From Bacillales bacterium UBA4694 (GTDB lineage Bacteria; Bacillota_I; Bacilli_A; RFN20; CAG-288): a stretch of 64,000 nt of DNA. The notes below the pieces were generated by a model. It was given only the letters and a program-made list of their open reading frames with translations, did not search any database and was not told the DNA's origin. Position numbers and translations under genes: made by a program. This document shows positions 6,582 to 60,670 of this stretch, one piece after another (position 1 is the first letter of the stretch; each line of letters starts with the position of its first letter). The stretch covers positions 27,866 to 91,865 of the forward strand of contig DHKM01000002.1 of NCBI GenBank assembly GCA_002404835.1, in the 5' to 3' direction.

Positions 6582-7331
6582 ATGAAAAAAGGATTGCTTG
6601 TAGCATTGATTCCTCTTCTTTCTTCTTGTGGAATACAAATGAGTGTTTCCGCAAAATCAGACAGTGGTCCTTCTGAATCTGTTTGTCCTGTTTCTAAAAG
6701 CGACTCTTCGGACTCTGGGCCTATGGAAGAAACATATATGAATAAGGAGTTCGGTTTTGATCATATTACGGAAGAGGCTACGTTCGATCTTACGAATAAT
6801 GATGTTGAACTTGATTTCTTTTATGCCCAATGGCAGAAAAAACGAAATCCCTCCGTTTTCTATAATCATACCGTAGCACTTCAGTACAGGTTTTCGGATG
6901 TGCCTTATCCGGAATGGGACCGAAACCCGGATTATCATTTGTCCGTTGATGGTTGTGAAGCTTGTTTTCCAATCTCGATGAGGCAAGGCAAGGTGCTTTT
7001 TCTGGATAATGGAACGAAGAGTTTTGTGGATGAACACATTATTACTTCAGGGTCACTACAATATGATAAGTGGGAACCGGATCGATGTGTGGTAAAAACA
7101 TCTATCGAGATGAAAACATTTCTTGAGGGTGCGAAGACAGGTAAATATCTGCATGTTTTTTATGTTCCGTATCCTGCGGAAGACGGATATATGTATGATG
7201 AAAACGGAAACAAGTTTGAGTGGATTGACTACAAAGAGCCTTTCCATAGAAGCTCACTTATACAAAACTATTCTGTTGAAATAACGGATTCCGTTGTTAA
7301 ATTGTTCTATGAACAGGAACCGAATTATTGA
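6582..7331 (+). CDS. Lipoprotein, function unknown
   Basis: MKKGLLVALIPLLSSCG: signal peptide plus LSSC lipobox, behind an AAGGAGG RBS. No recognisable catalytic motifs. Confidence 0.6.
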   Translation: MKKGLLVALIPLLSSCGIQMSVSAKSDSGPSESVCPVSKSDSSDSGPMEETYMNKEFGFDHITEEATFDLTNNDVELDFFYAQWQKKRNPSVFYNHTVALQYRFSDVPYPEWDRNPDYHLSVDGCEACFPISMRQGKVLFLDNGTKSFVDEHIITSGSLQYDKWEPDRCVVKTSIEMKTFLEGAKTGKYLHVFYVPYPAEDGYMYDENGNKFEWIDYKEPFHRSSLIQNYSVEITDSVVKLFYEQEPNY

Positions 7332-7511: not shown

Positions 7512-8519
7512 ATGTCAAAGAAAACAAATGCAGTTGAAACAGTCGGCAAGAAAAAGAAGCATCATATTCTTAGAGGAATCTTGATTTTCTTCCTCTCTCT
7601 TATTTTGCTCATCGTAATCTGTCTGGCAGCTTACAATGGAATCAAACATATCCGTTTCAAGGGATATTATGATATTGCCACCAAGATGAGAGACAACCCA
7701 GGATTGAACGACGGGTATGTTACTCAGGGGTTATGCTATCTGGAGGATGAGGACGTCTATCTGACCAGCGGATATATGACAGACAAGGAGAAACCTAGCC
7801 GTGTCTATTCCGTCGATAAGAACAACAAGCAACATTTTGCCGAACTTTATTATCTGAAGGATGGTGTCGAAAAGAATTTCTCCTATCATTGCGGTGGTGT
7901 CGCTAGCGAAGGCGATTATGTCTATGTGGCAGGTGCTTCCAAGATCTTCTCCTTCTTGAAAAAGGATATTCTGAATTCCAATAAGGCAGTTGCTGTGAAG
8001 AGTTTTGCTGTCAACAATGCCGCATCCTTTGTCTTTACGGACGGAAATTTCCTTTACACAGGTGAGTTCAATGATGATAATGCCTACAAGACCGAAAATG
8101 AATTCAAGAATACAGATGGGGAAGTCACAAAAGCCATCATTTCCAAATATGAACTTGCTTCCGTCGACAAAGATGAGAAGGGAACTCCTGTTCTTGAATA
8201 TGCCATCCGCAATTCCGTCCAGGGAATGTGTGTCACGGCATCCGGAAAGATTGTCCTGGATACCAGCTGGGGAATGAGCCCTTCCCATTTCTATGTCTAT
8301 GATGGATTCAATGGTACGGAAGATACTAAGGACGGCGACGTTCCGGTCATCTACCTCGACAGCAGATACCTCAAGCAGGACATCGTCGGACCATCTATGG
8401 CAGAAGATTTGGATTATCATGATGGAAAAGTGCTGGTGGCAAGTGAATCTGCTTCCAACAAATATATTTATGGTAAATTCTTCTTCTATTTCTCTATCAT
8501 GGGCCTTACCATCGATTAA
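7512..8519 (+). CDS. N-terminally TM-anchored extracellular protein, function unknown
   Basis: Basic cytoplasmic tail (KKKKHHILRG) and a single TM helix (ILIFFLSLILLIVICLAAY), followed by a roughly 290 aa Tyr/Gly-rich ectodomain. Convergent with the first GH3 gene. Confidence 0.5.
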   Translation: MSKKTNAVETVGKKKKHHILRGILIFFLSLILLIVICLAAYNGIKHIRFKGYYDIATKMRDNPGLNDGYVTQGLCYLEDEDVYLTSGYMTDKEKPSRVYSVDKNNKQHFAELYYLKDGVEKNFSYHCGGVASEGDYVYVAGASKIFSFLKKDILNSNKAVAVKSFAVNNAASFVFTDGNFLYTGEFNDDNAYKTENEFKNTDGEVTKAIISKYELASVDKDEKGTPVLEYAIRNSVQGMCVTASGKIVLDTSWGMSPSHFYVYDGFNGTEDTKDGDVPVIYLDSRYLKQDIVGPSMAEDLDYHDGKVLVASESASNKYIYGKFFFYFSIMGLTID

Positions 8520-8562: not shown

Positions 8563-8620
8563 AAGGACCACAGGATAAAATCCAATGTTATTGGATCATT
8601 CTGTAAGGTCCTTTTCTTTT
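8563..8620. terminator. Bidirectional terminator between convergent genes
   Basis: AAAAGGACCACAG...CTGTAAGGTCCTTTT long hairpin, with an A-run on one side and a T-run on the other. Confidence 0.45.
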
Positions 8621-11517
8621 TACTTTTCCTTAATTAGGAAATAAGAGGTCATATAATAGACAAATGCGATTCCGGAAATGATACCGGAGACGATACTAAC
8701 TGTTGTCAGGGTGACTTTCCACCATGGCGTAATATCTTCAAGGGTGCTGTCTGGACTGATTCCGTTCATTCCTGCGGATTTGTTGACGATGGTATATAGG
8801 ATTCTATGGGTGCTTTCACGAACTCTCCAGGCAAAGGTAGGGCTGGATTTGTAGGCATCCAACGACTTCTCGGTTCCGCTTCCCATGAAGAGATTGGACC
8901 CGTTCATGAAGCCATCGTTATAAAGCATATAACTGCCACCGTTTGAGACTGCCATATCGGTGATGATGTAACCGGTAAATCCCCACTCTTTGCAAAGAAT
9001 GTTCTGTTGAAGTTGGTTGTGTGCTCCGACCCAACGGCAGCCTACTCGGTTGAAACTTGACATGATTGAACCTGTATGGCCCTTCTTCACTGCCGCTTCA
9101 AATGGAGCCAAGAGAAGCTCTCTTGCTTCCTGCTCGTTGAGCCAGACACTGATACCGTTTCTGTTTGTTTCACAGTCGTTGAAGGCAAAATGTTTTGTAT
9201 GTGTGATAACACCTTTCTTTTGTAAGGCATTGATTTCCGCCACGCAAGCCTGACTTGTCAAAAAACTATCTTCGCTGAAATACTCGTTTGATCTTCCGAT
9301 GAATGGAGTTCTATGAAGATTGACACCAGGAGCATAACTTCCTTCTGTTCCGGATAAACGAATATCTTCAGCAAAGGCATCTCCGATTTTTGAAATGAGC
9401 TCGTTATTGAATGTGCTTGCCCAGATTCCTTCGCTAGGGAAGGCGGAATCTGTCTTTGTCTCGACTACTGCAGTCGGTCCGTCCAAGGCCTTGATGCCAG
9501 GAAGTCCGATTTTCGATAAGGCAATGGTTGCGTTCTGACCGGAAGTCACAAGCCTTGCCTGTTGTCCGAATGACATAGAATCGAGAAGCTCATCCCATTT
9601 CTTGTCATCGTAGGCGATTTCCTTCTCTTCGAAAGATTTCAGGGAAATCAGTTTCAGATCGGTTGGCTGCTCGTATTTTGGCATTTCCGTTTCTGTCTCG
9701 ACGATGGCTTTGTCCGATTTGATGTCGTCTTTCATTTTGTCGGTTTCAATCGTGAAGGATATCGGAGCTTTCGGCCAGGTGCCTGTCCAGTCGTTTCTGG
9801 ACATATAGGTGACTTTGTTGTTTCCTTTTCCTTCGTAGAGATTCATATCGCTGTCATCAAGCTGATTGGTGATTTCCATTCCGGTTGTCTCATCTTTGGA
9901 ATAGGTTGTATGGTCAAGGGTACTTACATGATAGGAATAGACAAGCGAATCCGTTCCATCTGTCTGATATCCTTTTTTCTTGAGAATGTTGTCCGTGGCA
10001 TTATGGGCATCTCTTCCGGCAGTCAGATAATAATCTCCCTCGTCGACGATATAGGTCTTGTATCCGTATGAGTCATAGGATTTCATCTGACTCTTCTGGA
10101 TTTCGATGGTGACCGTTTCTTTTCCTCCGTTGGCCTTCAACACACCTGTCTTCTGATAGCCGACGAGTTCGACACTCGCTTTCTCGACATGGTTGGCTTT
10201 GTCATAATCGGTATAAGGTTTCTGCATGTAGATTTCAACTGTATGTTTGCCGTCCATGTTTCCGATATTGGTGACATCGAGGGATACGAGGAATGAATCA
10301 TCTTTTGCCTCTACCTTATAATTCGAGTATTCGAATGTCGTATAGGAAAGCCCGTAGCCGAACGGGAAAGCGACATCGTTTTCGTAATTGTAGTCTCCGG
10401 CATTTCCTTTCCCCATGATCTTGTCTTCATATCTTGTCTCATAATACCGATATCCAAGATAGATTCCTTCGTTGTAGATTTCATAGGAACGCTGGGTGGA
10501 ATCCAGTTTCAGGGCAGAATAGTTTGTGTAATACTGAGCCAAACTCTTGGAACGATTGAGGCCCCAGCTTGTCATGGCAGGAGAGGAGAAATTGTCTCGG
10601 CAATAGGTATCAGACAATCTTCCTGAAGGATTGTTTTCTCCAATCAACGTTTCGACCACGGCATTCAGTCCATAGCTTCCGACGTTTCCAATCCACAGAA
10701 CGCTATCGACATCGATGTTTTCACGATATAGATAATCCTGTTCGATCGGATTAGATGAATTCAATAAGACGATGATTCGCTTTACTTTTCCTTCTTTCTT
10801 CAGAGAAGTAAGATTTGCAAGTAGATCGAGTTCGCTTTCGGAAAGAGAAAGATAGCTTCCGTCTTCACCGTCGCTCTTGCTTGTCGAAAGATCCTTTCCT
10901 TCGCCGGATTCCCGGGCAATGGTGATAATGGCAGCATCCGAGTAGTTGGCAATACTTTTTTCAAGAGTGGCTTTGACCTTGTCATAGCCAGGCTCATTGA
11001 TCAAATAGGAATTTCCAATGATGGTTCTTCCTTCCCCTTTGAGAGTATTTGTGTATAGCGACTCTGTATCCGGATTGACTTCGATTCCTTTTTCTTTCAG
11101 GATATTAGGAAAAGTCTGATAGGAACTGGAGGATGTCGAACTAGAACCGGATGTGTTGTAATTGAACCGGTAGCTTGCTGTTCCAAGCAGAGTCACTTTG
11201 CTTGTTTTGGATATCGGCAAGGATGCCTCCCCGGTTGAGATCTTACTGTTCTTTAGAAGGACTAGCCCCTCGTTTTCTGCTTCGATGGCCGTGTCCTTGA
11301 AATAGCGTTTGACATCATCTTCCGTTTTGTATGTTGTCTTGAAATATTCGTCTCCGGTATTGTCTTTCCTTGAAGTATCAATATGTAATGCCTTGTTGAT
11401 GGCATTGCTGTTCTTGTCTGCAATCGCTCCTCCTGCAATCGATATGACAAGCAAGGAGGAAAAACCAAGGAAAAGACCATGGGATAAGCGCTTGTATTTG
11501 AAGATTCTCTTATTCAT
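8620..11517 (-). CDS. Glycoside hydrolase family 3 (beta-glucosidase-like), domain-permuted, with a C-terminal TM anchor (paralog 1)
   Basis: Signal peptide. The GH3 C-terminal alpha/beta-sandwich motifs come first (LVLLKN...KVTLLG; AAIITIARESGEG; NPSGRL). Next come YLGYRYYE / FPFGYGLSYTTF and an Fn3-like domain. The TIM-barrel catalytic domain follows (KHFAFNDCETNR...GFTGYIITDM nucleophile region). It ends in a TM helix VSIVSGIISGIAFVYYM. Confidence 0.85.
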   Translation of the reverse strand: MNKRIFKYKRLSHGLFLGFSSLLVISIAGGAIADKNSNAINKALHIDTSRKDNTGDEYFKTTYKTEDDVKRYFKDTAIEAENEGLVLLKNSKISTGEASLPISKTSKVTLLGTASYRFNYNTSGSSSTSSSSYQTFPNILKEKGIEVNPDTESLYTNTLKGEGRTIIGNSYLINEPGYDKVKATLEKSIANYSDAAIITIARESGEGKDLSTSKSDGEDGSYLSLSESELDLLANLTSLKKEGKVKRIIVLLNSSNPIEQDYLYRENIDVDSVLWIGNVGSYGLNAVVETLIGENNPSGRLSDTYCRDNFSSPAMTSWGLNRSKSLAQYYTNYSALKLDSTQRSYEIYNEGIYLGYRYYETRYEDKIMGKGNAGDYNYENDVAFPFGYGLSYTTFEYSNYKVEAKDDSFLVSLDVTNIGNMDGKHTVEIYMQKPYTDYDKANHVEKASVELVGYQKTGVLKANGGKETVTIEIQKSQMKSYDSYGYKTYIVDEGDYYLTAGRDAHNATDNILKKKGYQTDGTDSLVYSYHVSTLDHTTYSKDETTGMEITNQLDDSDMNLYEGKGNNKVTYMSRNDWTGTWPKAPISFTIETDKMKDDIKSDKAIVETETEMPKYEQPTDLKLISLKSFEEKEIAYDDKKWDELLDSMSFGQQARLVTSGQNATIALSKIGLPGIKALDGPTAVVETKTDSAFPSEGIWASTFNNELISKIGDAFAEDIRLSGTEGSYAPGVNLHRTPFIGRSNEYFSEDSFLTSQACVAEINALQKKGVITHTKHFAFNDCETNRNGISVWLNEQEARELLLAPFEAAVKKGHTGSIMSSFNRVGCRWVGAHNQLQQNILCKEWGFTGYIITDMAVSNGGSYMLYNDGFMNGSNLFMGSGTEKSLDAYKSSPTFAWRVRESTHRILYTIVNKSAGMNGISPDSTLEDITPWWKVTLTTVSIVSGIISGIAFVYYMTSYFLIKEK

Positions 11518-11518
11518 G

Positions 11519-11950
11519 CTAGACCCTCTTTTCTGTGATTATCTTCACTTCTTCTTTGTTCCTTGTCTTTGGAAGAAAGACGGAAATAAGAGCTGCAACA
11601 AGGGAAATAAGGAAGAACAAAATTGTTATGATGAAAGAAGATGAGAAAGTAGAACCATCGATGGAAGTGAAAACGTTGGCGATATAATTCGCCTGGCTTC
11701 CGATGTAGGAGATGAAACTATATAAAACCAAAAGGAACGCAATGTCATTCAATGGCTGGATCGTATAGAAGAATGTGACAATCTCCAAGATGAAGGCGAT
11801 GATTGCTGGGATTATTGCCGAAAGAGCCAGATCCTTGTTGAATTCGTTTTTCCCAAAGCAGATATAGAGAATGACGGCAACAATACCAAATAGGACACTT
11901 GCCGCTTCAATAAAAAAGCAAAGGGGTTTCGATCTAAAAAATCCTTTCAT
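11519..11950 (-). CDS. Small 4-TM membrane protein, paralog of 62003..62419, coupled to GH3
   Basis: 143 aa with four hydrophobic helices. Its stop lies 1 nt from the GH3 start. It is clearly homologous to the ORF at 62003..62419 (ANVFTSIDGSTFSSSFIITILFF vs SNVAFGVDGNSFDVAFFLFWIF). Confidence 0.55.
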   Translation of the reverse strand: MKGFFRSKPLCFFIEAASVLFGIVAVILYICFGKNEFNKDLALSAIIPAIIAFILEIVTFFYTIQPLNDIAFLLVLYSFISYIGSQANYIANVFTSIDGSTFSSSFIITILFFLISLVAALISVFLPKTRNKEEVKIITEKRV

Positions 11951-11960
11951 ATTCTTGCCT

Positions 11961-13211
11961 CTAGTCTTTGTTGAATTCTTTGAATGTAAGAGTTTCGTCC
12001 GTATAGAATTTCAGGCAGTCGATCATGGGAGCCATAGCAGCCATGGTTCCTGTAGAATCTTTTCTTCTGTTGTTGTTTGTGATGAGTTTGATTACGTTCT
12101 CGCCTTTCTTGAGATTCAAGGCGGTGGACAAGGTGAAATCGTTGAATGGTCTCTTATCCGGATTGGAACGGTCGGTGATGACGTTTTTAATTTCGATGGT
12201 TCCGTAGTCAAGATTGGAACCATTGACGTTGACAAGCCAGGAATCGACATAGGAACCATCTGCATTTTCTTTGCCTTCAGTTGAGAATGTCATGTCGAAA
12301 TATTCTGCCGTAAGAGTGGCGATGAAGATGGCATCATTGACTTCTTCTGTTGCTGTGATGTCGAATTCCAAATAAGCGCCATTGTAATAAAGATCGGTGA
12401 TGTATTTGTGGTTGGAACAGTCTGTAGACATAGTGCCGTCCGTCTGGATAAGACCGAGGCCTGTGACATTGCTGGAATAACCATATCCGAGCTTTTCGCC
12501 GATATCGTTTGCTGTGATATCATCTTCCGGTAAGTCGGTCAGTTGTGTATACTCGGCCTCGAATGTATATTTGTTGAACCATCTGGCATAGAGGTCTGCG
12601 TTTTCTTGGTATCTTTGCATCGGTTTGTATTCACTTGCAAAATCTGCGGAGGTATACCAGTTCTTAAAATAATATCCATCTCTGTTAGGGGTTATGGCTT
12701 TGATTCTGCTGTTCTTTTTGACATAGACTTTATAGAAGACATCTTTTTCTGATCCGCTATAGTTCCAATGGAAAGTAACACTTATCGTATTTCCGTCATC
12801 TTCTATCCATTGGGCATAGATCGTGATGTTTCCTGTAATGGCGGAGAAATCATAGACAGTATTTCCTTCTTTGTCTGTGGTCCAGCCACTGAAAAGATAA
12901 CCTTCTCTTGTCGGAGTGTCGATTGGGTTGACATATTTCCCCTTTTCGGCATTCACTTTGACGGAAGTTGAACCAGTATAGTTGAGATCGAAAGTCACAA
13001 CATCATTTTCAACAGGCTCTGGAGTTGGGTCATCCTTTTTGGAGGAGGTTGAATCCTTCTTGGTAGAATCGATATCCGGTTTTGGCTGTTCAGTGCTTTG
13101 GGTTGTATCTTTTGTATTGCTGTTGGATCCTTTATTGGAGACTGTTGTTCCCCCACAGCTAGATAACATCAAAATGGATAGAATCGGTAAGATGAAAAAT
13201 TTTTTTGACAT
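11961..13211 (-). CDS. Lipoprotein with Listeria-Bacteroides (Flg_new) repeats and a C-terminal beta-sandwich/CBM-like domain
   Basis: LMLSSCGG lipobox. Two repeats of the YxFxGWxTx...YxFxxxxxxxxxLYAxW type (YLFSGWTTDKEGNTVYDF...IYAQW; YYFKNWYTSADF...LYARW), then a C-terminal domain of about 200 aa. First gene of the lipoprotein / small-TM / GH3 operon. Confidence 0.7.
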   Translation of the reverse strand: MSKKFFILPILSILMLSSCGGTTVSNKGSNSNTKDTTQSTEQPKPDIDSTKKDSTSSKKDDPTPEPVENDVVTFDLNYTGSTSVKVNAEKGKYVNPIDTPTREGYLFSGWTTDKEGNTVYDFSAITGNITIYAQWIEDDGNTISVTFHWNYSGSEKDVFYKVYVKKNSRIKAITPNRDGYYFKNWYTSADFASEYKPMQRYQENADLYARWFNKYTFEAEYTQLTDLPEDDITANDIGEKLGYGYSSNVTGLGLIQTDGTMSTDCSNHKYITDLYYNGAYLEFDITATEEVNDAIFIATLTAEYFDMTFSTEGKENADGSYVDSWLVNVNGSNLDYGTIEIKNVITDRSNPDKRPFNDFTLSTALNLKKGENVIKLITNNNRRKDSTGTMAAMAPMIDCLKFYTDETLTFKEFNKD

Positions 13212-13290
13212 AATGTTTTTCTCACTTTCTTGTTATTGATAACAATATAATGAATTAGTCTGATAGATAGGTAATATAATTAGGAAAACA

Positions 13291-13328
13291 ACCTCGATTG
13301 GAATAGTTAATTCCCGAGGTTGTTTTCG
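13291..13328 (-). terminator. Terminator after the 1379-aa GH3 gene
   Basis: AACAACCTCG-loop-CGAGGTTGTT hairpin flanked by AAAA/TTTT, directly downstream of the stop at 13330. Confidence 0.5.
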
Positions 13329-13329
13329 C

Positions 13330-16300
13330 TCATTTACTTATCTTCTTCTTGAAGAGAACGGCAACGGCAGCTAAGCCTAATGTTGCAACAGCAGATGTTG
13401 CTGCTACGACAGATCCTCCGCAACCGGAAGACTTCTTGTTCTTCAAGGCTTCGATTTCTTCTTTGAGAGCTTTGATGTCATCGGCATAGTCCTTGGTTTC
13501 CTTGCCTTCCAAGGCAGCAAGTCTAGACTCAAGAGAAGAAACATCCGTCTTGCCTTTGAGGGCTTCGATTTCCTTCTTGAGATCGGCGATTTCCTTGGAA
13601 TAGTCTTCTGTCGGAGTGACGATGCTGTTTCCTTTGACGACCATATGGACCTTGATGGTTGCGGTTGTCTTTGTATCACCGCCACCGAATCCAGGGAAAC
13701 CTGCTTTGTTGGTTTCTGGTTTGGCAAGACCAAACGGGAATCCTCCACCGGAACTCTTCTTGGTGGCTGTTACTTTGATTGTGAAATCAAAAGTTCCGCT
13801 TTCTGTCGGTGTACCTGAAATCTCTCCGTCTTCCTTTACGACGATGCCGTTAGGGGCTTTTCCGCTATCGATGGCATAAACGACTGTATCATATTTTCCA
13901 CCTTCGGTCGTGAAGATGCTGGACTTATATTTAGCTGCGAATTCTTCACCGACTTCCATCGCTTCCATGTCATCGCTTCCTTCTTCCAGTTCGAAAGCAG
14001 AATTGACGGTGATGGAATACTTGGCACTCTTGGTGACATAGTTGTCGATGACACAAGTTACGGTGAACTCGTATTTTCCTTCCTCAGTTGCACTTCCGCT
14101 GATTTCACCGGTCTTCGTGTTGATGGAAAGACCTGTGGGAAGTTTTCCGTCAGAGATGGAATAGGTAGCAAAAGAGTCATCTCCAAGAAGGGTGGCATCT
14201 AATCCTGTGGAAAGTTTGGCATTTTCGTAGGCTTTGATGGTTCCGAGATTACCGCCCTGCAAGGCAAGAGAGGCAAATCCGTTCTGATAGTTGTTGGAAT
14301 TTACGGTAGCATAGATGACGGAATGGGCTACCTTACGTGCATAGTAGTACTGGAGATAGGATTCCTTGTATTCGGCATCGGCGTCGGTCATATCGGCTTT
14401 GTATTTGACTCCGCCTTTTCCGTTTCTCAGAGTGGCATCCCATTCTCCGGAGAGAAGGTCATACCAAGGTTCAGTCTTGTAGACGATACCGTTTCCGGCA
14501 CGGACCATCTGATCGATGGTGGTGCACCATCTCATTCCGAGGAATCCGTCGGTGATCATGAAGCCATGCCATCCCCACTGATTCTGGAGGACACCGGTAT
14601 TAAGATACCAGTTGGACTGGTTGACAATACCCTGGATTCTTCCGTATCCGGACATACCCGCATTGGCACCGCCTTCCTGGATTGCCATCTGGAATTCTTT
14701 GAGTTCGTTCTGACGGATGTTCTGCTCTGACTGCCATGTGTAGAGTGATTGTCCGCCACGGTTTGTTTCCTGGTCATTGAAGGCAAGATGCTTGACCATG
14801 GCATTGCAGCCTCTGGACTGGGCACCTTTGACGACGGCAGCGGCAATATATCCGCCCTGGATACCATCCTGAGAATAGTATTCGTTGTTTCTACCGGAGA
14901 AAGGAGAACGATGCATATCCATACCTGGACCATACCAACCCGTGTTTCCGGTTAGAAGCGCCATCGTACCGACAATCTGGCCGTTGAGGTTGGCAAGCTC
15001 GGTGTTCCATGTGGAAGCGATGATGGTTTCATCTGTCCACTGATACAGATTGTCGAAGCAGTTCGGACCATCCTGATCGATGGATTTCGGTTTTCCGAAG
15101 TCGTCCAAAGCGACAGTGGAAGCTCTGGATTCTGTAGACAAATCACAGATTTCTTCCCAGGTAAGCTGATTCAGGAAGTCTTCGTATTTGGTATCATCGT
15201 AGCTTAAACCATGCAGATCCTTGAATTGGATGGTGACTGTTCTTCCTTCTTTGGATGCGGCTTGTGTCCAATTGGCACATTTGCTGTCGAAGTCCGCTTT
15301 GCTGAAATACCAAGGATCGCTTTCCTTGTCTTCAAGTGCGGTATAGACACGGATTCCGTCGGAAGAAGTATCGACCTGTTTATCCAGTTTATAGGACAAA
15401 CGTTCGGTATCGGTATCCTGCCATCTCTGGTAGACTTCTTTGGTGAAGACAAGGGCATTCTTCTTTTCGGTTCCGCTTCCATCATCTTTCTGGACGGTAA
15501 CTTCCTGTGGATGCTGTGGGAAAGTGGCATCGAAATCAGAACGGCTCATCAGGACTTCAACATCCTTTCCGTCCTGCATCATATCCGCAGTACGGAGCGA
15601 ATTGACTTGGGTCTTTCCGTCTTTTCCAGTTCCGACGTATTTTCCGTTGTCTGTTGTGAACATATTGGAAAGCTCGTTTCCGGAGAAATCATCCAGATGC
15701 TGATGGGCGGTTGCCTTCAAGGTGAAGTCGATTTCGTCGACATCATCTGTTTTGTCTGTCTTGGCATCGATAGAAAGGTCTCTATGAGAAGTGGCCATGG
15801 CACGGATTGTGTATTTGCCGGCATCAAGCTCATAGTCGCCTTTGACGCCATCTTTGTTGGCATCTTTGTAATCCCAGGAGGCAAAATCCTGTACATTGAC
15901 CTCGACGACAATGGTTTCTCTTTCACCCGGCTTCAAAAGACTGGTTTTTCCATAGCCGACAAGATCGTGGACCGACTTTTCGATTCCGCCTTTGTTATAT
16001 GGTGATTTGACATAGATCTGAACGGTCTGCTTGCCTTCGACATCACCGGTGTTCTGGACTTCGACCGGGATGTAAAGCTTCTTGACCTTGGCTGGACTTC
16101 CTTTGGAGGATTCGAAGAGGGATGCTTCGACTTCGTCTCCGAGAGGAGTTTCCAGATTCTCGTCGCGGAAGGCTCCTTTGATGTTCATGCTGAATGTGGT
16201 ATAGCTTAAACCATCGCCGAATCCATAGGCGACATTGTTCTCATACCAATCCTGGGCTTCTTTTCTCTGAGCATCGCTGGTCGCTTTTTCGTATTTGTCT

Positions 16301-17469
16301 TCATAATAGGTCTCATAGTACCGATAACCAAGATAGATATCCTCTTCATAATCGATACCTAAATCAATCCAGTCATTGGAAACAGAACCTTGGACAATCT
16401 GACCGTTTTCGTCATATTGCGGTCTATTGAAGGATAGCTTTCCGTCCGAATCATAATAATAACGATGCGAGGAACCTGTCTGGGAATTGTCGCCGAAATT
16501 CTGCCAGGTCGGATCGGCTGTCAGATCTCTTGGCCATTCATCGACCAGATGTCCGGAAGGATTCACCTGACCATTGAGAATTCTTGCCACAGCATAAAGT
16601 CCATCTTCGCCCGGACGGCCGATATACATGATGGCATTGATGTTCTCATCATCTTTCAGCGAACCGATTTCCATGACGTTGGAAGTGTTAAGAAGAACGG
16701 CAACTTTGTCGAATTTGGATTCGACCATCTTGATAAGATCTTTTTCCTCTTCGGTAAGCATGAGAGCATGCTTGGCAGTATAGGAAGATTCTTCCTGAGA
16801 AGGATCGGCTGCCATATTCCATCCGCCCCCGCCTTGTTCTCCGCCACTGGATTTGGTATAGGTGCCTAATGCCTTGTGGGATGCAACTTCTTCCGGAGTG
16901 GCTTTTTCAGAGGTGACTCTTTCGATGTCTCCGCCTTCGCCAGCATTTCTAGAGAGGACGATGATAGCAGCCTCGTTATATTCCTCCATGGAATTGAGGA
17001 CGGACCCATTGAAATTATTTGCCTGCTTTGTGATGCAGGAACCGCTGCTCATCGGACCAGAAGAGGCGCTGTTTCCCTGATTCAGGTAATGCTGTTCCAA
17101 GGTAGGATTGACTTTGAAGCCTTCGGAACGAAGTGCTTCCGGAAGTGTCAAAGCGGTATTTTTGCTATAGGAACCGCCTCCGACGAGTGCGACATTGTTT
17201 GAACCGAAAACAGAAATTCTTTCGTTTCCTCTTAACGGAAGTGTGCCATCATTCTTTAAAAGAACGTCACCTTCTGCGGCCAATTCAATGTTAAGATCCT
17301 TAGCGGCATCCATGCACTGATCCAATGTGGAATAGTTCGGATAGTATTTGTCTTTTTCACCAGCTTTTGTCTGAAGTGCATTGCCATTTCCGCCGAGCAA
17401 GGCGAGACTTAATAGGCTTAATGTGGAGAGAGAGAAGAGCTTGATTGATCTGTTGCTTCTTTTTTTCAT
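13330..17469 (-). CDS. Giant cell-surface GH3 glycosidase (paralog 2): permuted GH3, two He_PIG Ig-like domains, a coiled-coil stalk and a C-terminal TM anchor
   Basis: Signal peptide. GH3 motifs GYRYYETYYED, GFGDGLSYTTF, KHLAFNDQETNRGG and HGFMITDGF. Two putative Ig (He_PIG) repeats (LPTGLSINTKTGEISGSATEEGKYEFTV; APNGIVVKEDGEISGTPTESGTFDFTI). Heptad region DLKKEIEALKGK...ALKEEIEALKNKK. It ends GCGGSVVAATSAVATLGLAAVAVLFKKKISK. An AGGAG RBS lies 7 nt before the ATG. Confidence 0.85.
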   Translation of the reverse strand: MKKRSNRSIKLFSLSTLSLLSLALLGGNGNALQTKAGEKDKYYPNYSTLDQCMDAAKDLNIELAAEGDVLLKNDGTLPLRGNERISVFGSNNVALVGGGSYSKNTALTLPEALRSEGFKVNPTLEQHYLNQGNSASSGPMSSGSCITKQANNFNGSVLNSMEEYNEAAIIVLSRNAGEGGDIERVTSEKATPEEVASHKALGTYTKSSGGEQGGGGWNMAADPSQEESSYTAKHALMLTEEEKDLIKMVESKFDKVAVLLNTSNVMEIGSLKDDENINAIMYIGRPGEDGLYAVARILNGQVNPSGHLVDEWPRDLTADPTWQNFGDNSQTGSSHRYYYDSDGKLSFNRPQYDENGQIVQGSVSNDWIDLGIDYEEDIYLGYRYYETYYEDKYEKATSDAQRKEAQDWYENNVAYGFGDGLSYTTFSMNIKGAFRDENLETPLGDEVEASLFESSKGSPAKVKKLYIPVEVQNTGDVEGKQTVQIYVKSPYNKGGIEKSVHDLVGYGKTSLLKPGERETIVVEVNVQDFASWDYKDANKDGVKGDYELDAGKYTIRAMATSHRDLSIDAKTDKTDDVDEIDFTLKATAHQHLDDFSGNELSNMFTTDNGKYVGTGKDGKTQVNSLRTADMMQDGKDVEVLMSRSDFDATFPQHPQEVTVQKDDGSGTEKKNALVFTKEVYQRWQDTDTERLSYKLDKQVDTSSDGIRVYTALEDKESDPWYFSKADFDSKCANWTQAASKEGRTVTIQFKDLHGLSYDDTKYEDFLNQLTWEEICDLSTESRASTVALDDFGKPKSIDQDGPNCFDNLYQWTDETIIASTWNTELANLNGQIVGTMALLTGNTGWYGPGMDMHRSPFSGRNNEYYSQDGIQGGYIAAAVVKGAQSRGCNAMVKHLAFNDQETNRGGQSLYTWQSEQNIRQNELKEFQMAIQEGGANAGMSGYGRIQGIVNQSNWYLNTGVLQNQWGWHGFMITDGFLGMRWCTTIDQMVRAGNGIVYKTEPWYDLLSGEWDATLRNGKGGVKYKADMTDADAEYKESYLQYYYARKVAHSVIYATVNSNNYQNGFASLALQGGNLGTIKAYENAKLSTGLDATLLGDDSFATYSISDGKLPTGLSINTKTGEISGSATEEGKYEFTVTCVIDNYVTKSAKYSITVNSAFELEEGSDDMEAMEVGEEFAAKYKSSIFTTEGGKYDTVVYAIDSGKAPNGIVVKEDGEISGTPTESGTFDFTIKVTATKKSSGGGFPFGLAKPETNKAGFPGFGGGDTKTTATIKVHMVVKGNSIVTPTEDYSKEIADLKKEIEALKGKTDVSSLESRLAALEGKETKDYADDIKALKEEIEALKNKKSSGCGGSVVAATSAVATLGLAAVAVLFKKKISK

Positions 17470-17786: not shown

Positions 17787-18518
17787 TCAGTTGATGAGAG
17801 ATGATCTAGTCAGTGACATGTATTCTTCGATGATTTGGTTTCGGTTTGTTCGGGAAAGCGGAATTTCAGTCTGACTTTTTAATATAACGTGTTTTGCATC
17901 GAATTTTTCGATATATTTGTAATTGATGAGAAAACCTTTGTGAACCCGGATGAATCCAAACGGTCTGAGCTGGTTTTCCAGTGAAACAAGAAGCTGACGG
18001 ATTTTGATTGCATCCGGTTTGTCTTGTAGATGCAACAACTGATAGTTGTGGCTTGCTTCGACAAATTCGATATCATCAATGCTGATCAGGGAGGTTTCCG
18101 TTTCGGTCTTGATTTCCAGATAATTGATTTTCCGGTAATTTGGATAGATGTCATTCAGAAAATGGCTGATTGCACTGCTCACATCTTCGATGAAGTTTGT
18201 TTTTCTGATGAATCCGATCGGGTCGAATTCAAAGCAACGGAATACTTTTGATTCGTTTGAAGAAATGAAGACAAGAGAGACCTTTTTGTCTTTTTCTCGA
18301 ATCAATTTGGCCACTTCCGTTCCATCCAAAGGGGACATGATGACATCAAGACAGATCAAATCATATTGTGTGTGTTCCATGGATTCCAAAAGCTTTTCTC
18401 CTTCAGTGAAAGCCTGGATTTCGGATGGTATTTTCTTTTCGTCGAGTATCCCTTTTATGGAATTGGCCTCTATGGAAAGGCTTGTGTTTTCATCATCAAG
18501 CATTGCGATCTTAATCAT
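17787..18518 (-). CDS. LytTR-family two-component response regulator
   Basis: N-terminal receiver domain (MLDDE...DLICLDVIM) and a C-terminal LytTR DNA-binding domain (FIRVHKGFLINYKYIEKF). It overlaps the kinase gene by 8 nt. Confidence 0.8.
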   Translation of the reverse strand: MIKIAMLDDENTSLSIEANSIKGILDEKKIPSEIQAFTEGEKLLESMEHTQYDLICLDVIMSPLDGTEVAKLIREKDKKVSLVFISSNESKVFRCFEFDPIGFIRKTNFIEDVSSAISHFLNDIYPNYRKINYLEIKTETETSLISIDDIEFVEASHNYQLLHLQDKPDAIKIRQLLVSLENQLRPFGFIRVHKGFLINYKYIEKFDAKHVILKSQTEIPLSRTNRNQIIEEYMSLTRSSLIN

Positions 18519-19857
18519 GGTTTTCTCCTTGTTTTTGAAACATCTCTATCATGCCGTCGGAATAGAATTTTCCGTCTTCGATGTAGAAGGTGATATGACC
18601 ATTGTATTTTCTGATCATTCCTTTGATGATTCCGATTCCATAACCATGGCCGTTTGTGTTTTTGGATGAGTTGAATTCCAGTCTTTGTTTGTCGGTGGGG
18701 TTGCAGATGAGGAATCTCAGATAGTTTTTGTCTGCTCTTATTCTTACATCGATACATGGCTTTTTATCTGGGGTTCTTTCGGTTTCTTCCAAAGCATTGT
18801 CGATAAGGTTGGTCAGTAAGGAACAAAGATCGCTGTCCAAGAAAGGGAGAGAAGGTGGGATAGCAACCATGGTCATCATTTCGATATGTCTCATATGAGC
18901 TTTTGTCATCTCAAGATTGAGAATGGAAGAAACGACAGAATTTCCGCAGTCAATGATATGGATGTCTTCGAAAGTTACATCCAATGTTTTTTGGAGATAT
19001 TCTTCTGCTTTGTCATATTGTTTCTCTTTGAGTAGGTTTATGGCATAGGCATAATGGTTTTTGATATCATGCCTTGCCATGCTTGAACGAGTGATGGAAT
19101 CCTGATTCATTTTCAGCATCAAAAGAGCAGACTGGTTCATTTTCGCCTCTGCTTCTGCCTGGATTGTCCTCTGCTGACTTCTTAGAAGAAGATAGAGAAA
19201 AACATAGATTCCGATGTCTATGGCCAGAAGGACAAAAAGGACGAAAATGATGAAGGCGTGATAGGCTGTTGAGGATGAAATGTCAAAATTGCTCTGAACC
19301 ATTGAAATGATAAGAATTCCGAGGAAAATGGAAATATCCAAAATCAAATAGGAAATCGGAATGCAATAAAAATTGTTGATGTTTATATAGCCGATTAAAA
19401 AACCGGAAATAATGGCTAGCAGATAAGGAAGAGACATTAGGGCTTGATAGGCAAAACTGTTAAGGGATAATTTAGCAAGGATGAGGTTGTTATGATGACC
19501 GATTTCTGTAACGACATAGGTGGCAGAGAAAAACAAAATCATTCGAACGAACTTTTTCCGAAAACTCAGTTTATCGGTGATTCCCAGATAGATGAAACCC
19601 GGAATGACCATTGACAAAATAATCAGATAGGGGGTGAACCTTGGCTGATTTAAGGAATAGCTTAGCATGCAAAGAATAGTGATGGATGCAAATAAGATGG
19701 CGAAATTCAGAAAGTCGAAAATTATTTTGCGGATACTTTTCGAATAATTGCCACGGCAAAGTATGGCTGAAAAAGCAATGCAGAAAATCTCAAAAACAAA
19801 AGGGAAACTGTAAAATACCCTGAAGAAATTGACAATATTTTCGGTTAGTTGACCCAT
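18511..19857 (-). CDS. AgrC/ComD-type (HPK10) membrane sensor histidine kinase
   Basis: Six to seven N-terminal TM helices, an H-box ARHDIKNHYAY, and a C-terminal GHKL ATPase (NGHGYGIGIIKGM). Canonical partner of LytTR regulators. Confidence 0.75.
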   Translation of the reverse strand: MGQLTENIVNFFRVFYSFPFVFEIFCIAFSAILCRGNYSKSIRKIIFDFLNFAILFASITILCMLSYSLNQPRFTPYLIILSMVIPGFIYLGITDKLSFRKKFVRMILFFSATYVVTEIGHHNNLILAKLSLNSFAYQALMSLPYLLAIISGFLIGYININNFYCIPISYLILDISIFLGILIISMVQSNFDISSSTAYHAFIIFVLFVLLAIDIGIYVFLYLLLRSQQRTIQAEAEAKMNQSALLMLKMNQDSITRSSMARHDIKNHYAYAINLLKEKQYDKAEEYLQKTLDVTFEDIHIIDCGNSVVSSILNLEMTKAHMRHIEMMTMVAIPPSLPFLDSDLCSLLTNLIDNALEETERTPDKKPCIDVRIRADKNYLRFLICNPTDKQRLEFNSSKNTNGHGYGIGIIKGMIRKYNGHITFYIEDGKFYSDGMIEMFQKQGENHD

Positions 19858-22041: not shown

Positions 22042-23565
22042 CTAATGATTTTCGTTCGTCTTTTCCTTGTAGTATTCTTTGATATCATCCATGGATGTCT
22101 TAAGAAGGTCAAGGACGTCTTTTGAAAATGCACCGCATTCCCCTTCTTGAATCTTTTTAAAAGATTCTTCAATAGAAAGATTGTCTTTGAATACGACAAG
22201 ATTGTCAAAGCTGTCGATTAAGGATATCAACTGCGTGGCAAAAGAAATGTTTTTGAGCCCTCTTGGTGAACCTTTTCCATCAATTCGTTCATGGTGGTTC
22301 AGGGCAACGTCATATATGGTTTTATAGAAATCGTTCTTTTCAAAATCCGGCAGGGATTGAATCAAGTTTGCGCCATAGGAAGAATGCATGTCTATTGTCG
22401 ATATTTCCTGTTCGGTCAAATTCTCTTTCTTGTTGAGAATATCAAGAGGGATGAATATTTTGCCGATGTCGTGAACTTTGGCAGCCAGAATAATGGCTTC
22501 TTTTTCTTCTTTGGTCAGCATCTTGCATCCCTCATGAGGGGACTCGAGAATCAGATTCGTAATTGCTTCTACACGGATGAGATGAGAATAAAGATCCGGG
22601 TATTTGATTTTCAAAAGCATATCCAGAAGGGAAAAGAGGAAGACATCGTTCTTATCTTCGGTTTTCTTCAGCAATGTCTGGATAGAACTGTTTTCCTTTG
22701 CTTTGCTATCTGATACAACGGTGTTTCTTTTCTCTTTCGCAATATAAAGATTGGTATCCGCTTTTTCGAAGGATTCCTGTGCTGTTTTTCCTGACGCATT
22801 TGTCACACCGATTGAAACGGTGATTTTGACACTTTGGTGTTTTGGGTAGATGTACCGGCTAAGATGTTCTCTGATGTTGTCTAGGATTTTGATGGTTTCA
22901 TTTTCGTCATTTGTATGTAGAAGGATGACGAATTCATCACCACCATATCGAACGATGATTCCTTTTCCCTTTAAGAATTCTTTTGCGATCTTCACAACGT
23001 TTATGAGGACAATATCTCCGAACATGTGCCCATAAATATCATTGCATCCCTTGAAATTGTCGATGTCCAGAATCGCCACATAGGAAAATGTTTTCCTGTC
23101 TTTTAAATATTCTTCATAATACCGTCTGTTATAGGTGTCCGTTAGAATATCGTAATAGACTTTTTTGAAATAGTTTCCGGCGGTTTCTCCGGAAATCATT
23201 TTCATTTTGATATTTGTGATAAAGGTAGTTGGAAGCTTGAAAATGATTTCAAGAACATAAGGTAGGGATTCGATTTTGATGTATTTGGCATTGACGAGAT
23301 AGTAACGCTCGTTTAGACATTCCAATTTGAATGATTCCTTTTTTGTCTTCATACAGCGCGAAGATACACATTCCTTGCACGGATTTTTCCGATTCCAGAA
23401 GGTATAGCATTCAAAAGGAATGTTCAGCTTTTTTCGAGTCTCTTTTTCTTTCTCTAGACAGTGGATATGTTCTGCACTTAAAACACGAACGGCAAAAAAG
23501 ATTTGCTTTAGGTTTTTGACCAGGTCCATTGCCTCTTCATTTGTGTAATTGGTAACGCTTGACAT
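22042..23565 (-). CDS. Diguanylate cyclase (GGDEF) / HD-GYP phosphodiesterase fusion with a Cys-rich N-terminal domain
   Basis: LDIDNFKGCNDIYGHMFGD...RYGGDEFVILL (GGDEF), then VHDIGKIFIP...ALNHHERIDGKGSPRGL (HD-GYP with GSP in place of GYP). The N-terminal roughly 120 aa has HCLEKE...CYTFWNRKNPCKECVSSRCMK. Confidence 0.8.
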   Translation of the reverse strand: MSSVTNYTNEEAMDLVKNLKQIFFAVRVLSAEHIHCLEKEKETRKKLNIPFECYTFWNRKNPCKECVSSRCMKTKKESFKLECLNERYYLVNAKYIKIESLPYVLEIIFKLPTTFITNIKMKMISGETAGNYFKKVYYDILTDTYNRRYYEEYLKDRKTFSYVAILDIDNFKGCNDIYGHMFGDIVLINVVKIAKEFLKGKGIIVRYGGDEFVILLHTNDENETIKILDNIREHLSRYIYPKHQSVKITVSIGVTNASGKTAQESFEKADTNLYIAKEKRNTVVSDSKAKENSSIQTLLKKTEDKNDVFLFSLLDMLLKIKYPDLYSHLIRVEAITNLILESPHEGCKMLTKEEKEAIILAAKVHDIGKIFIPLDILNKKENLTEQEISTIDMHSSYGANLIQSLPDFEKNDFYKTIYDVALNHHERIDGKGSPRGLKNISFATQLISLIDSFDNLVVFKDNLSIEESFKKIQEGECGAFSKDVLDLLKTSMDDIKEYYKEKTNENH

Positions 23566-27900: not shown

Positions 27901-28077
27901 AGAAAAGAAACCCAGTTCATCTTGGGTCGCATAGGATATTTTCTTCCCATCATCCGAAACACGATAGAGAATTCTATCTTTGCCCTCTTCAAGTCTTTTC
28001 CTGAATTCATTTGCTATCTCTGTTGGAGTGAATGAAGATTCCATTGGCAATTGGGTCTGTTTCTTAGAGAAATACAT
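24937..28077 (-). CDS. SNF2-family ATPase/helicase with a large N-terminal bacterial SNF2-associated region (YwqA-like)
   Basis: C-terminal half: LADDMGLGKTLEMIAF (motif I), DEGQYIAN (motif II, DEGQ variant), TGTPIQNSL, LVFSSFKQALD, QATDRAYRIGQERKVTVYKLV (motif VI). A roughly 550-aa N-terminal region precedes the helicase core. Confidence 0.85.
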   Translation of the reverse strand: MYFSKKQTQLPMESSFTPTEIANEFRKRLEEGKDRILYRVSDDGKKISYATQDELGFFSLAINYKHNIVDCVTPSSFSDTGIINVFASFLMDMDEKMSEEQQLSCYGDYYLQSKLLSDLSETDIDQYYKDKSDLSRFLANLDQTDEMLDKEALSFTFCFHLSIEDNFIETELDANCANGKKKDSVFGHNNVMGDFYFSDRRNKLDSAIKKVFDCYSFLYRRQIYVESRSYYDHDFSADTNVMNEIYDLINAIHEAKDAKSEDHVELFINNIAIHSIQSSPCKIEIDEKEKIICDVDFKSHDFTYFIGRHAASYMEENIMHFYHFQSTKATMLFHFLKDHPDMRSDLFTKEITTALVPKIASDIQVAPSVVAKSMQLINHIELFLSLEDDGIKSETRAFIKGKQVDLETYKNSEPDGFNGFAFEMQKLFLPFNGKLKDEELINQYLGADLRPLKKSATVFISEELKRLKKKPIGKISIIVSGGEQDWFHLNFKSDEYSEDEIEEILSAYKRKKKFFLLKGDYLSLTDSELGEALEHLVSDVDVDLKKLDKKIPLYQALKLKDNSLSVIPDEVMKLFEEIQDYEKVKLNLSPEIESVLRPYQIKGVQWLTSLYAHNLAGILADDMGLGKTLEMIAFLSQDKTKKPTLIISPKSLTYNWEAEFNKWNPNQKVIVLSVDREIRHKLIQNIKPDEDVVYIIPYDSLRIDLDYFKEIYFKNIIIDEGQYIANALSQKAKAIKELKSDHRFALTGTPIQNSLLDLWSIFDFLMPGYFKTFTEFRKNYGKLDITQQDREHLERIVSPFILKRKKTDVLKELPGKTVEITTLSMTKEEQDFYNAYLLKAKKSMAMGNAKKIEILAELTRLRQICVDPATFLEYNKISSKLDYTVHLLKQATGKGHKILVFSSFKQALDHLGQCLTKEKVNYDMITGETPAKRRVEIADDFNTTDSISVMLISLKAGGTGLNLIGADIVIHLDPWWNVASEEQATDRAYRIGQERKVTVYKLVMKSTVEERVISLQEKKKTLSDIIDKDPNDKQKITTEDIQYLLS

Positions 28078-43382: not shown

Positions 43383-43429
43383 AAGCCATTACTTTGTAGA
43401 GACTATCTACAAGGTAGTGGCTTGTTTTT
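43383..43429. terminator. Bidirectional terminator between mfd and the convergent giant lipoprotein gene
   Basis: Imperfect 18-bp stem AAGCCATTACTTTGTAGA/TCTACAAGGTAGTGGCTT, with an A-run upstream and a T-run downstream. Confidence 0.5.
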
Positions 43430-47579: not shown

Positions 47580-47752
47580 TTTTGATTTTATCAATATTAT
47601 AGTTTATCGGAAAAAGATAACGTATCCAATGTTATTTGGCCTAATGATACATTCCAATAATGGTTTTACATGAAAACTATTTTCGGGACTATATTATTTA
47701 CTTCCGAAACATTGTTATTTTTTCTTTTCGCGCGTTTAAATATTATGGCAAT

Positions 47753-60645: not shown

Positions 60646-60670
60646 AAGAAAAAATAGGCTTCCGCCTATT
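60646..60670 (-). terminator. Terminator after the small membrane protein gene
   Basis: AATAGGC-ttcc-GCCTATT hairpin with a T-run on the minus strand. Confidence 0.5.

Follow-up and report, generated by a model that had tools for sequence, protein, structure and literature searches.

Within glycoside hydrolase family 3 (GH3), a subfamily of enzymes with a permuted domain order was defined for GlyA1 (PDB 5K6L-5K6O), from rumen metagenomes (PMC5104943), and a second member, BrGH3A, was characterised in 2024 (PMC11233000). Both enzymes consist of an (alpha/beta)6 sandwich, an FnIII-like domain, and an (alpha/beta)8 barrel, with the catalytic Asp in the barrel and the Glu in the sandwich, and both come from gut or rumen Firmicutes. 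Here we analysed 64,000 nucleotides of contig DHKM01000002.1 from Bacillales bacterium UBA4694 (positions 27,866 to 91,865; hereafter the window), in which three GH3 paralogs, GH3-1, GH3-2, and GH3-3, share this architecture, this placement of the catalytic residues and, most likely, this kind of origin. Unlike GlyA1, the window enzymes carry a signal sequence and, at the C-terminus, a membrane helix, and they have a dedicated partner gene for a small protein with four transmembrane (TM) helices, hereafter the 4-TM protein; GH3-2 adds He_PIG domains and a stalk. Searching the GlyA1 paper by terms turned up neither a signal peptide nor a transmembrane segment, and GlyA1 has a different C-terminal domain of 120 residues (PMC5104943). 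We lean towards the view that the anchored GH3 enzyme has the small 4-TM protein as its obligate partner in the membrane, within a surface system for harvesting hemicellulose oligosaccharides.

The genes are arranged in two cassettes. Cassette A comprises, from 5' to 3', a histidine kinase, a response regulator, GH3-2, a lipoprotein, the small protein TM-1, and GH3-1, and cassette B, at the right edge of the window, comprises GH3-3, the small protein TM-2, an esterase, and a 107-amino-acid membrane protein. The three minus-strand GH3 paralogs and the two small TM genes were confirmed at the positions given by the first-pass annotation, and a scan of all open reading frames (ORFs) of the window revealed no fourth GH3 and no third full-length small TM gene. 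The GH3 and partner genes, with their main features, are as follows.

8620 to 11517, minus strand: GH3-1, 965 amino acids, a permuted GH3 with a signal sequence, putatively an exo-glycosidase (Pfam domain order and alignment to 2X40)
10900 to 10902 and 8956 to 8958, minus strand: GH3-1 codons of the acid/base E206 and of the nucleophile D854, respectively (checked codon by codon)
8623 to 8730, minus strand: GH3-1 C-terminus, with the TPWW motif, a helix, and a basic tail
11519 to 11950, minus strand: TM-1, small 4-TM protein of 143 amino acids from an undescribed family
13330 to 17469, minus strand: GH3-2, 1379 amino acids, a permuted GH3 with E178 and D974
13438 to 14244, minus strand: two He_PIG Ig-like domains and a heptad-repeat (coiled-coil) stalk of GH3-2
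13333 to 13437, minus strand: GH3-2 C-terminus, with the SGCGGS motif, a helix, and a KKKISK tail
62003 to 62419, minus strand: TM-2, small 4-TM protein of 138 amino acids
62420 to 64000, minus strand: GH3-3, C-terminal 526 amino acids only (TIM barrel); the gene extends past the window
62768 to 62770, minus strand: GH3-3 codon of the nucleophile Asp
62423 to 62536, minus strand: GH3-3 C-terminus, with the NTWY motif, a helix, and a KKEER tail

The linkage between the two kinds of gene was followed across 61 loci. Eight of them (L052-L059) re-sample the window's own locus in other assemblies, and the other 53 (L001-L051, L060, and L061) are related loci in which the flank, or the protein itself, is informative. 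In 53 of these 53 loci, the 4-TM gene was directly beside, or fused to, a permuted tail-anchored GH3, and none of them lacked an adjacent GH3. The gene order is inverted between the two window loci, as had been pointed out before, and both orders recurred among the related loci, across several divergent subfamilies down to approximately 20% identity. For 32 metagenome loci, retrieval was based solely on a peptide pattern inside the TM-1-type protein, so that their selection was independent of the neighbouring genes. The small gene stood immediately before a GH3 of approximately 970 to 1000 amino acids in all 32, and those with upstream flank all had the Flg_new lipoprotein and a GH3 of 1150 to 1380 amino acids as well, that is, the whole of cassette A. 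The 10 loci collected earlier also showed the 4-TM/GH3 adjacency. A profile scan of genome contigs with the first alignment yielded three loci only, because its confirmation step used the divergent TM-1 sequence.

The adjacency was also seen in the more distant members. In all loci reached through TM-2 homologs, a LytTR regulator was followed by an HATPase_c_5 kinase, then a permuted GH3, a small TM protein, a PF00756 esterase, and a protein of approximately 112 amino acids. Among the divergent subfamilies, the order was TM-GH3 for P0200 and P0145, response regulator (RR)-histidine kinase (HK)-TM-GH3 for P0230, and RR-HK-GH3-TM for P0156, and the most aberrant member sampled, P0198, was encoded just downstream of a protein ending ...VWPWWESSIVALD...KSRKD. 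Human gut and fermentation metagenomes appear among the source names recorded for these loci. At two loci (L007, 2975-5994, and L026, 5419-8034), a frameshift or premature stop had split or shortened the partnered GH3, with the small gene intact; these split GH3s could be pseudogenes or assembly errors.

The linkage is most strongly supported by a natural fusion of the two proteins in one lineage. This fusion, P0187 (1075 amino acids), consists of a complete permuted GH3, a TPWY motif with its helix, a nine-residue linker, and a 4-TM domain at residues 958-1070. The 90% cluster of P0187 has seven members, five of which are 1075 to 1076 amino acids long, from several independent contigs of up to 62.5 kb, and an RR-HK pair precedes the fusion. 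A second fusion, P0265, has a different linker and belongs to a different subtype, and it was found on one short contig. The topology of the fusion is consistent, with the GH3 helix predicted to pass from outside to inside and partner helix 1 from inside to outside, in agreement with the N-in prediction for the 4-TM protein described below. A further composite, P0221 (229 amino acids), joins a receiver domain to partner helices 2-4 and has neither the LytTR domain nor helix 1, probably as a result of deletion or misassembly; if real, it would link the family to the two-component system.

The abutting stop and start codons reported by the first-pass annotation were found in both window pairs: the TM-1 stop is 1 nucleotide (nt) from the GH3-1 start, and the GH3-3 stop is directly adjacent to the TM-2 start. 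The ribosome-binding site of TM-2 (AAGGAGG) lies inside the last GH3-3 codons. The 4-TM and GH3 gene pairs appear to be translationally coupled.

TM-1 and TM-2 had been described as paralogous four-helix proteins of approximately 140 amino acids, and their homology was upheld by 23% identity (E 2e-9) and by motifs common to both in a 28-sequence alignment. The first motif, Y..G.N(E/Y)(F/L), follows helix 1, and the second, (Y/F)IxNVxxG(I/V)DGxxF, is located between helices 3 and 4. Both window copies have the features that define the family: a length of approximately 125 to 160 amino acids, four helices, both motifs, and a position abutting a tail-anchored permuted GH3. In a profile search against 1.84 billion representatives, the threshold E<=1e-3 was passed by 376 proteins and E<=1e-10 by 118; almost all were 125 to 160 amino acids long, and the figure of 376 refers to clusters at 50% identity. 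The exact TM-1 protein was present in 48 blocks of the contig index. Neither TM-1 nor TM-2 matched Pfam or NCBIfam, no family recurred among 148 members, and profiles of SMR/EmrE, LrgA/CidA holin-like, and GtrA proteins gave no match to the small 4-TM proteins.

An AlphaFold2 model built from the 148-sequence alignment contained four long helices (residues 10-32, 43-61, 65-95, and 104-125), with a predicted local distance difference test (pLDDT) score of 90.2 and a predicted TM-score (pTM) of 0.81. The positive charges at both termini of the modelled protein suggest an N-in/C-in topology, which would place the conserved motifs on the outer face. The conserved residues are located at the outer ends of helices 1, 3, and 4, on the same predicted membrane face as the W(W/Y) motif of the GH3 enzymes. 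A Foldseek search of the PDB with the 4-TM protein returned nothing under E 0.1.

These results bear on another explanation of the gene pairs, in which the small genes are unrelated or spurious membrane ORFs that lie beside GH3 genes by chance. The two window copies are only 23% identical, and hydrophobic proteins can inflate similarity scores. However, this idea is effectively excluded by the adjacency in every informative locus, the natural fusions, the conserved non-hydrophobic motifs, the confident AlphaFold2 model (pLDDT 90.2), the tight gene spacing, and the strong ribosome-binding site of TM-2. The first-pass annotation had argued for a functional partnership instead of a hitch-hiking ORF, and the adjacency in 53 of 53 loci together with the fusions supports that argument.

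The size and helix count of the protein also resemble those of dimeric small transporters, and the 4-TM protein might oligomerise like SMR or SemiSWEET carriers and import the sugar released by the GH3 enzyme. Such a role would suit the conserved polar N, Q/E, and D near the outer ends of helices 3 and 4; no sugar transporter gene was seen in the cassettes, and a fusion to the enzyme would co-locate hydrolysis and uptake. Nevertheless, a transporter is improbable, since none of the 148 members matched a Pfam or NCBIfam transporter family, no structural match was found at E<0.1 and the best non-significant ones were auxiliary subunits and not carriers, the conserved residues are at the membrane surface and in loops rather than mid-membrane, and one fused copy per enzyme is ill-suited to an obligate antiparallel or parallel dimer.

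With hhalign (probability 91.6%, E 8e-7), the 107-amino-acid protein of cassette B aligned over its whole length with the 4-TM family, except that the IDGxxF loop is absent. This protein could be a distant, truncated paralog of the partner family, paired with the lipoprotein esterase, although membrane-protein profile scores can be inflated and the paralogy is tentative.

The GH3 enzymes themselves were then compared with solved relatives. The permuted order (Glyco_hydro_3_C, Fn3-like, Glyco_hydro_3) claimed for all three paralogs was found by Pfam in GH3-1 (sandwich, residues 85-356; Fn3-like, 426-503; barrel, 652-856) and GH3-2 (69-382, 482-551, and 817-980, respectively), in both of which the PF00933 barrel and the PF01915 sandwich exceed the Pfam cut-offs. 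The in-window part of GH3-3 comprises the barrel only, which exceeds the Pfam cut-off, and its permuted order is indicated by orthologs: the one in L009 (84.6% identical) and other type-B orthologs have the full order. Pairwise identity was 28% between GH3-1 and GH3-2 (E 3e-87) and 33% between GH3-1 and GH3-3 (E 2e-76). The description of the 1379-amino-acid member as carrying two He_PIG stretches and a heptad (coiled-coil) stalk was likewise correct for GH3-2.

The solved structure closest to GH3-1 was Thermotoga neapolitana Bgl3B (2X40). In the alignment, D854 of GH3-1 (GYIITD) corresponded to the nucleophile D242 of Bgl3B, and E206 (SGEGKD) corresponded to the acid/base E458 (SGEGYD). GH3-2 has the nucleophile D974 in a motif of the xxITD/VTTD type and E178 in AGEGGD. 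In GH3-3, the in-window fragment contains the nucleophile motif VTTD, and the acid/base lies beyond the window; the motif at this position is GGEGSD in the L009 ortholog and GGEG(S/N/T)D in five further orthologs. The catalytic Asp and Glu are thus conserved, by the Bgl3B alignment for GH3-1 and by motifs in GH3-2, GH3-3, and its orthologs. Neither of the two conditions under which the first-pass annotation would have been refuted, a missing linkage of the small genes to GH3 in other genomes or a loss of the catalytic residues, was borne out. PDB entries 5K6L and 5WUG matched with the barrel in the C-terminal half, the barrel being at residues 502-711 in the match of 5K6L to GH3-1. The reversed order had been called known but in the minority, and it is indeed that of the GlyA1 (5K6L) subfamily, which is structurally characterised and of which the window enzymes are ordinary new members.

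With regard to membrane attachment, the N-termini of the GH3 enzymes have a basic and then a hydrophobic segment of the Sec-signal type (the start of GH3-3 lies beyond the window). As the first-pass annotation had noted, the C-terminal tail of all three is one hydrophobic helix with a K/R-rich end and without LPXTG; the tails read TPWW..., SGCGGS..., and NTWY.... Two tail classes were distinguished among the related loci. The partnered class has ...MNG...(P/T/W)W(W/Y), then the helix, and then a basic tail. The GH3-2-type class has a variable stalk, then GC(G/S)(G/S)S, the helix, and KKRK, and its stalk is a coiled coil in the window and a series of collagen-like GXY repeats in several loci (large GH3s of L014-L045). 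The Cys of the GH3-2 type is positioned just outside the membrane and could be a modification or cleavage site. Approximately 45% of the partnered tail helices, in both subfamilies, have a D or E roughly eight residues in (L002, L006, L011, L014, L015, L019, L022, L028-L030, L036, and L061), and the window copies have Ser or Val at this position.

The three-part layout of these tails, with a (P/T)W(W/Y) or GC(G/S)(G/S)S motif, a helix, and a basic cluster, raises the question of whether they are C-terminal sorting signals and the small protein is their dedicated enzyme, similar to a sortase, exosortase, or rhombosortase. One-to-one adjacency of a target and its sorting enzyme is known from dedicated sorting systems. 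We consider this reading highly improbable. No Cys, His, or Ser is conserved family-wide in the 4-TM protein, in which the near-invariant residues are only Y, N, D, and G, and neither tail type matched a curated C-terminal sorting domain in NCBIfam at E<0.1. The stable enzyme-substrate fusion P0187 argues against cleavage, and, to our knowledge, four helices and 140 amino acids are below the size of any known sorting enzyme.

The remaining genes of the cassettes encode accessory proteins and regulators, which are listed here together with two hairpins.

11961 to 13211, minus strand: Flg_new lipoprotein, 416 amino acids, lipobox MLSSC
12579 to 13010, minus strand: two Flg_new/InlB B-repeats of the lipoprotein (Pfam)
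11964 to 12578, minus strand: C-terminal domain of the lipoprotein with a CBM35/CBM6 fold (carbohydrate-binding module families 35 and 6; AlphaFold2 and Foldseek)
13282 to 13330, minus strand: strong hairpin and U-rich tract immediately behind the GH3-2 stop, probably an intrinsic terminator (free energy -24.6 kcal/mol, z -7.46)
17787 to 18518, minus strand: response regulator, 243 amino acids, receiver and LytTR domains (PF00072, PF04397)
18511 to 19857, minus strand: histidine kinase, 448 amino acids, with six N-terminal TM helices and HATPase_c_5 (PF14501) (Pfam and hydropathy)
60666 to 60989, minus strand: 107-amino-acid 4-TM protein, conserved downstream of the esterase (hydropathy and synteny)
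60995 to 61948, minus strand: lipoprotein esterase, 317 amino acids, similar to feruloyl esterases of carbohydrate esterase family 1 (CE1; PF00756), a conserved member of cassette B
61973 to 61996, minus strand: stable hairpin in the gap that separates TM-2 from the esterase gene, probably a terminator or attenuator (free energy -17.9 kcal/mol, z -5.43)

The first-pass annotation contained neither the LytTR system, nor the CE1 esterase and second small TM protein of cassette B, nor the terminator after GH3-2, nor the GH3-2 tail motif. It had also placed the lipoprotein at the head of the first operon. This holds for the unit of lipoprotein, TM-1, and GH3-1, in which 10 nt separate the stop codon of the lipoprotein gene from the start codon of TM-1, and probably fails for GH3-2, which the hairpin and U-rich tract would cut off; the lipoprotein therefore heads a three-gene unit, and GH3-2 probably forms a separate transcript. 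With the hairpins after GH3-2 and TM-2 taken together, the likely units are GH3-2 by itself, lipoprotein-TM-1-GH3-1, GH3-3-TM-2, and esterase with the 107-amino-acid protein. The consensus promoter and terminator scans missed the long-loop hairpin, which was recognised by eye.

The proposal that the Flg_new-repeat lipoprotein has a CBM-like C-terminal domain was borne out at the fold level. The lipobox reads MLSSC-GG, and its Cys is kept in at least 90% of 65 homologs. The AlphaFold2 model of the lipoprotein had a pLDDT of 86.4, and the top PDB matches of its C-terminal domain in Foldseek were CBM35 structures (2W46, E 3.9e-5; 2W3J; 2W1W), followed by CBM6, all with probability 1.0. None of 22 lipoprotein homologs matched CBM_6 or CBM_35 in Pfam, one matched PF14683 'CBM-like' at 1e-4, and a profile search of the PDB with the lipoprotein found the InlB repeats only. 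The N-terminus of the esterase, LIAISCCGC, is also lipoprotein-like, and its closest solved relatives were the CE1 feruloyl-esterase domains of Clostridium thermocellum XynY and XynZ (phmmer E 3e-22). This likeness hints, at the level of sequence, at feruloylated xylan oligosaccharides as the substrate of cassette B. Taken together, the CBM35-fold lipoprotein and the CE1-like esterase point to hemicellulose-derived, possibly feruloylated or uronic-acid-bearing, oligosaccharides as candidate substrates.

The regulatory genes have the features of the AgrC/AgrA type (HPK10/LytTR), namely, a polytopic HATPase_c_5 kinase and a receiver-LytTR regulator. Where the flank was long enough, most loci had such a LytTR/AgrC-like two-component system next to the cassette, on its upstream or its downstream side, and the minimal modules are RR-HK-GH3-4TM (L049), RR-HK-4TM-GH3 (L047), and RR-HK-GH3::4TM (L011). 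This recurrence fits simple operon control. It also leaves room for the idea that the 4-TM protein is a co-sensor or adaptor that links the GH3 enzyme to the AgrC-like kinase, so that substrate binding or turnover would be relayed within the membrane and LytTR would induce the cassette. Intramembrane-sensing kinases that co-sense with a transporter or an accessory protein would be a parallel. In favour of this idea, the regulator and kinase adjoin the GH3/4-TM pair both in the window and, given sufficient flank, in the majority of loci; with two GH3s but a single 4-TM protein and a single two-component system, cassette A has as many 4-TM genes as systems, and not as many as enzymes; the kinase spans the membrane with six helices and lacks an external domain of any size; and loops as polar and conserved as those of the 4-TM protein would fit an interface for signalling. 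However, a regulator beside its target operon is expected anyway, and no robust fusion or motif links the kinase to the 4-TM family, the sole RR/4-TM hybrid, P0221, looking defective. We therefore regard a co-sensor function as unlikely, though it is compatible with the membrane-partner reading and does not exclude it. In its strongest form, the 4-TM proteins would be a previously unknown kind of bacterial auxiliary membrane subunit that makes the glycosidase a receptor, clasping its tail helix, contacting the kinase, and reporting glycan binding or turnover to the LytTR regulator; this, too, is a possibility to which we give limited credence.

In the mechanism that we favour, two regulated cassettes would harvest plant-glycan oligosaccharides at the cell surface. 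The N-terminal signal sequence would direct export of the GH3 enzymes, and the C-terminal stop-transfer helix would keep them at the outer side of the cytoplasmic membrane, with the basic tail in the cytoplasm. GH3-1 and GH3-3 would each pair with a co-transcribed small four-helix protein whose termini are both cytoplasmic. We propose that this protein makes physical contact with the enzyme: it would pack on the GH3 tail helix and on the conserved (P/T)W(W/Y) motif next to the membrane, and the resulting five-helix module would dock and orient the enzyme. The CBM35/CBM6-fold lipoprotein may capture the glycan, which the stalked GH3-2 in cassette A and the CE1-like esterase lipoprotein in cassette B would process, and the adjacent AgrC-like kinase and LytTR regulator would control cassette expression. 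The five-helix module is favoured because the two proteins occur fused, because their genes are adjacent without exception whichever comes first, because the pair is co-transcribed, and because the conserved motifs of both lie on the outer face.

Several observations weigh against this mechanism. No charge-compensating partner was found for the D or E of the tail helices, in that 27 unique GH3-tail/partner pairs showed no covarying column. The conservation of the tail helix relative to the catalytic domain was no higher in partnered enzymes (0.28/0.59) than in the unpartnered GH3-2 type (0.23/0.45). Tail-anchored GH3s without a partner gene of their own exist, such as the second GH3 in L011 and the GH3-2 type. 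The strongly conserved polar loop motifs are not obviously needed by a passive dock. With regard to the substrate, every NCBIfam equivalog score was far under its cut-off (best, 212 bits versus 1300), giving no match that would assign a substrate specificity.

The host is most likely an uncultured gut member of the Bacillota from the lineage of Mycoplasma-related Bacilli. The flanking genes, read from the syntenic contig L001, have the order RsgA/MMR_HSR1-family GTPase, RNase HII, DprA, and TopA, which presumably corresponds to the rbgA-rnhB...dprA-topA region of Bacillus. Metagenome-assembled genomes with homologs bear the names Bacilli bacterium, Candidatus Enterosoma sp., Clostridia bacterium, and Firmicutes bacterium; of these, Candidatus Enterosoma belongs to GTDB order RFN20, family CAG-288. 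CAG-288 has been predicted to have no peptidoglycan, and order RFN20 has been reported to have no srtA/B (PMC10868615). Such an absence of peptidoglycan and sortases would explain the use of helix and lipid anchors instead of LPXTG. The closest relatives of cassette B, L008 and L009 (CAVJWL010000018.1 and CAVEQA010000013.1), are in metagenome-assembled genomes titled Prevotellaceae and Paludibacteraceae with Firmicutes-like gene content; these bins are probably mislabelled or contaminated.

The G+C content is 41%, and Rfam and tRNA scans of the window gave no matches and so no taxonomic marker. Two ORFs, 6582-7331 (plus strand, 249 amino acids) and 7512-8519 (plus strand, 335 amino acids), are convergent with GH3-1 and have no Pfam match; at their position, the syntenic contig L001 has one unannotated gene of 274 amino acids on the opposite strand. 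Five further large ORFs also lacked a Pfam match: 43428-47594 (minus strand, 1388 amino acids), 48871-53652 (plus strand, 1593 amino acids), 35699-37564 (minus strand, 621 amino acids), 28077-29519 (minus strand, 480 amino acids), and 47660-48874 (plus strand, 404 amino acids). The ORF at 22042-23565 (minus strand) encodes GGDEF fused to an HD-GYP-like HD domain, a cyclic-di-GMP signalling gene in a possibly reduced genome.

The guts of humans and animals commonly harbour Mycoplasma-related Bacilli (RF39, RFN20, and relatives), which are uncultured organisms with small genomes, and how such Bacilli feed on dietary glycans without a cell wall or sortases is little understood. The 4-TM family is widespread and unannotated, and its only consistent genomic context is the tail-anchored GH3 glycosidase; the natural fusions make a physical partnership directly testable. 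If the proposed partnership is true, a family now labelled 'hypothetical protein' would gain a name and a role, a way of displaying glycosidases on membranes or stabilising them there would be known, and there might also be a new coupling of glycan degradation and gene regulation. If the enzyme indeed acts as a receptor, a new mode of carbohydrate sensing would be present in wall-less or sortase-less gut Bacilli.

The tail helix and anchor alone are not new among GH3 enzymes, for which SN243 is a precedent: after export by Sec, it too is predicted to stay attached to the cell surface through a helix at its C-terminus. SN243, compared here by description, differs in its catalytic residues, which are reported to be of the NagZ type, and a search of its paper by terms turned up neither a permuted order nor a partner membrane protein. 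Display by sortases through LPXTG is similar in that an exported enzyme is kept at the surface by means of a motif, a hydrophobic helix, and basic residues; the window tails differ in lacking LPXTG or a curated motif, and their helix is probably retained as the anchor. Three features are undescribed in Pfam, NCBIfam, the PDB, and the literature searched: the 4-TM partner family; the way in which it is strictly coupled, and in some cases fused, to tail-anchored permuted GH3s; and the conserved cassettes, whose further members are a lipoprotein of the CBM35 fold, a second GH3 with a stalk, a CE1 esterase, and a two-component system of the LytTR type.

Outside bacteria, the top, non-significant Foldseek matches of the 4-TM protein were TARP gamma-2/claudin-15 and MS4A/Fc-epsilon-RI beta (TM-score approximately 0.55, identity 10-18%). 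By analogy, these eukaryotic auxiliary subunits are small four-helix proteins that bind a larger membrane-anchored protein through their helices. Claudins and TARPs have an extracellular beta-sheet that is absent from the bacterial 4-TM protein, and the likeness is to be read as analogy only, not homology. Within bacteria, SaePQ with SaeRS and LiaF with LiaRS provide cases in which a kinase with little extracellular sequence is encoded next to a small polytopic membrane protein and, in some of them, a lipoprotein as well; no sequence relationship to the 4-TM protein was found. In contrast to SaePQ and LiaF, the 4-TM protein of the window is genetically tied, by fusion and by a spacing of 0 to 1 nt, to the glycosidase and not to the kinase.

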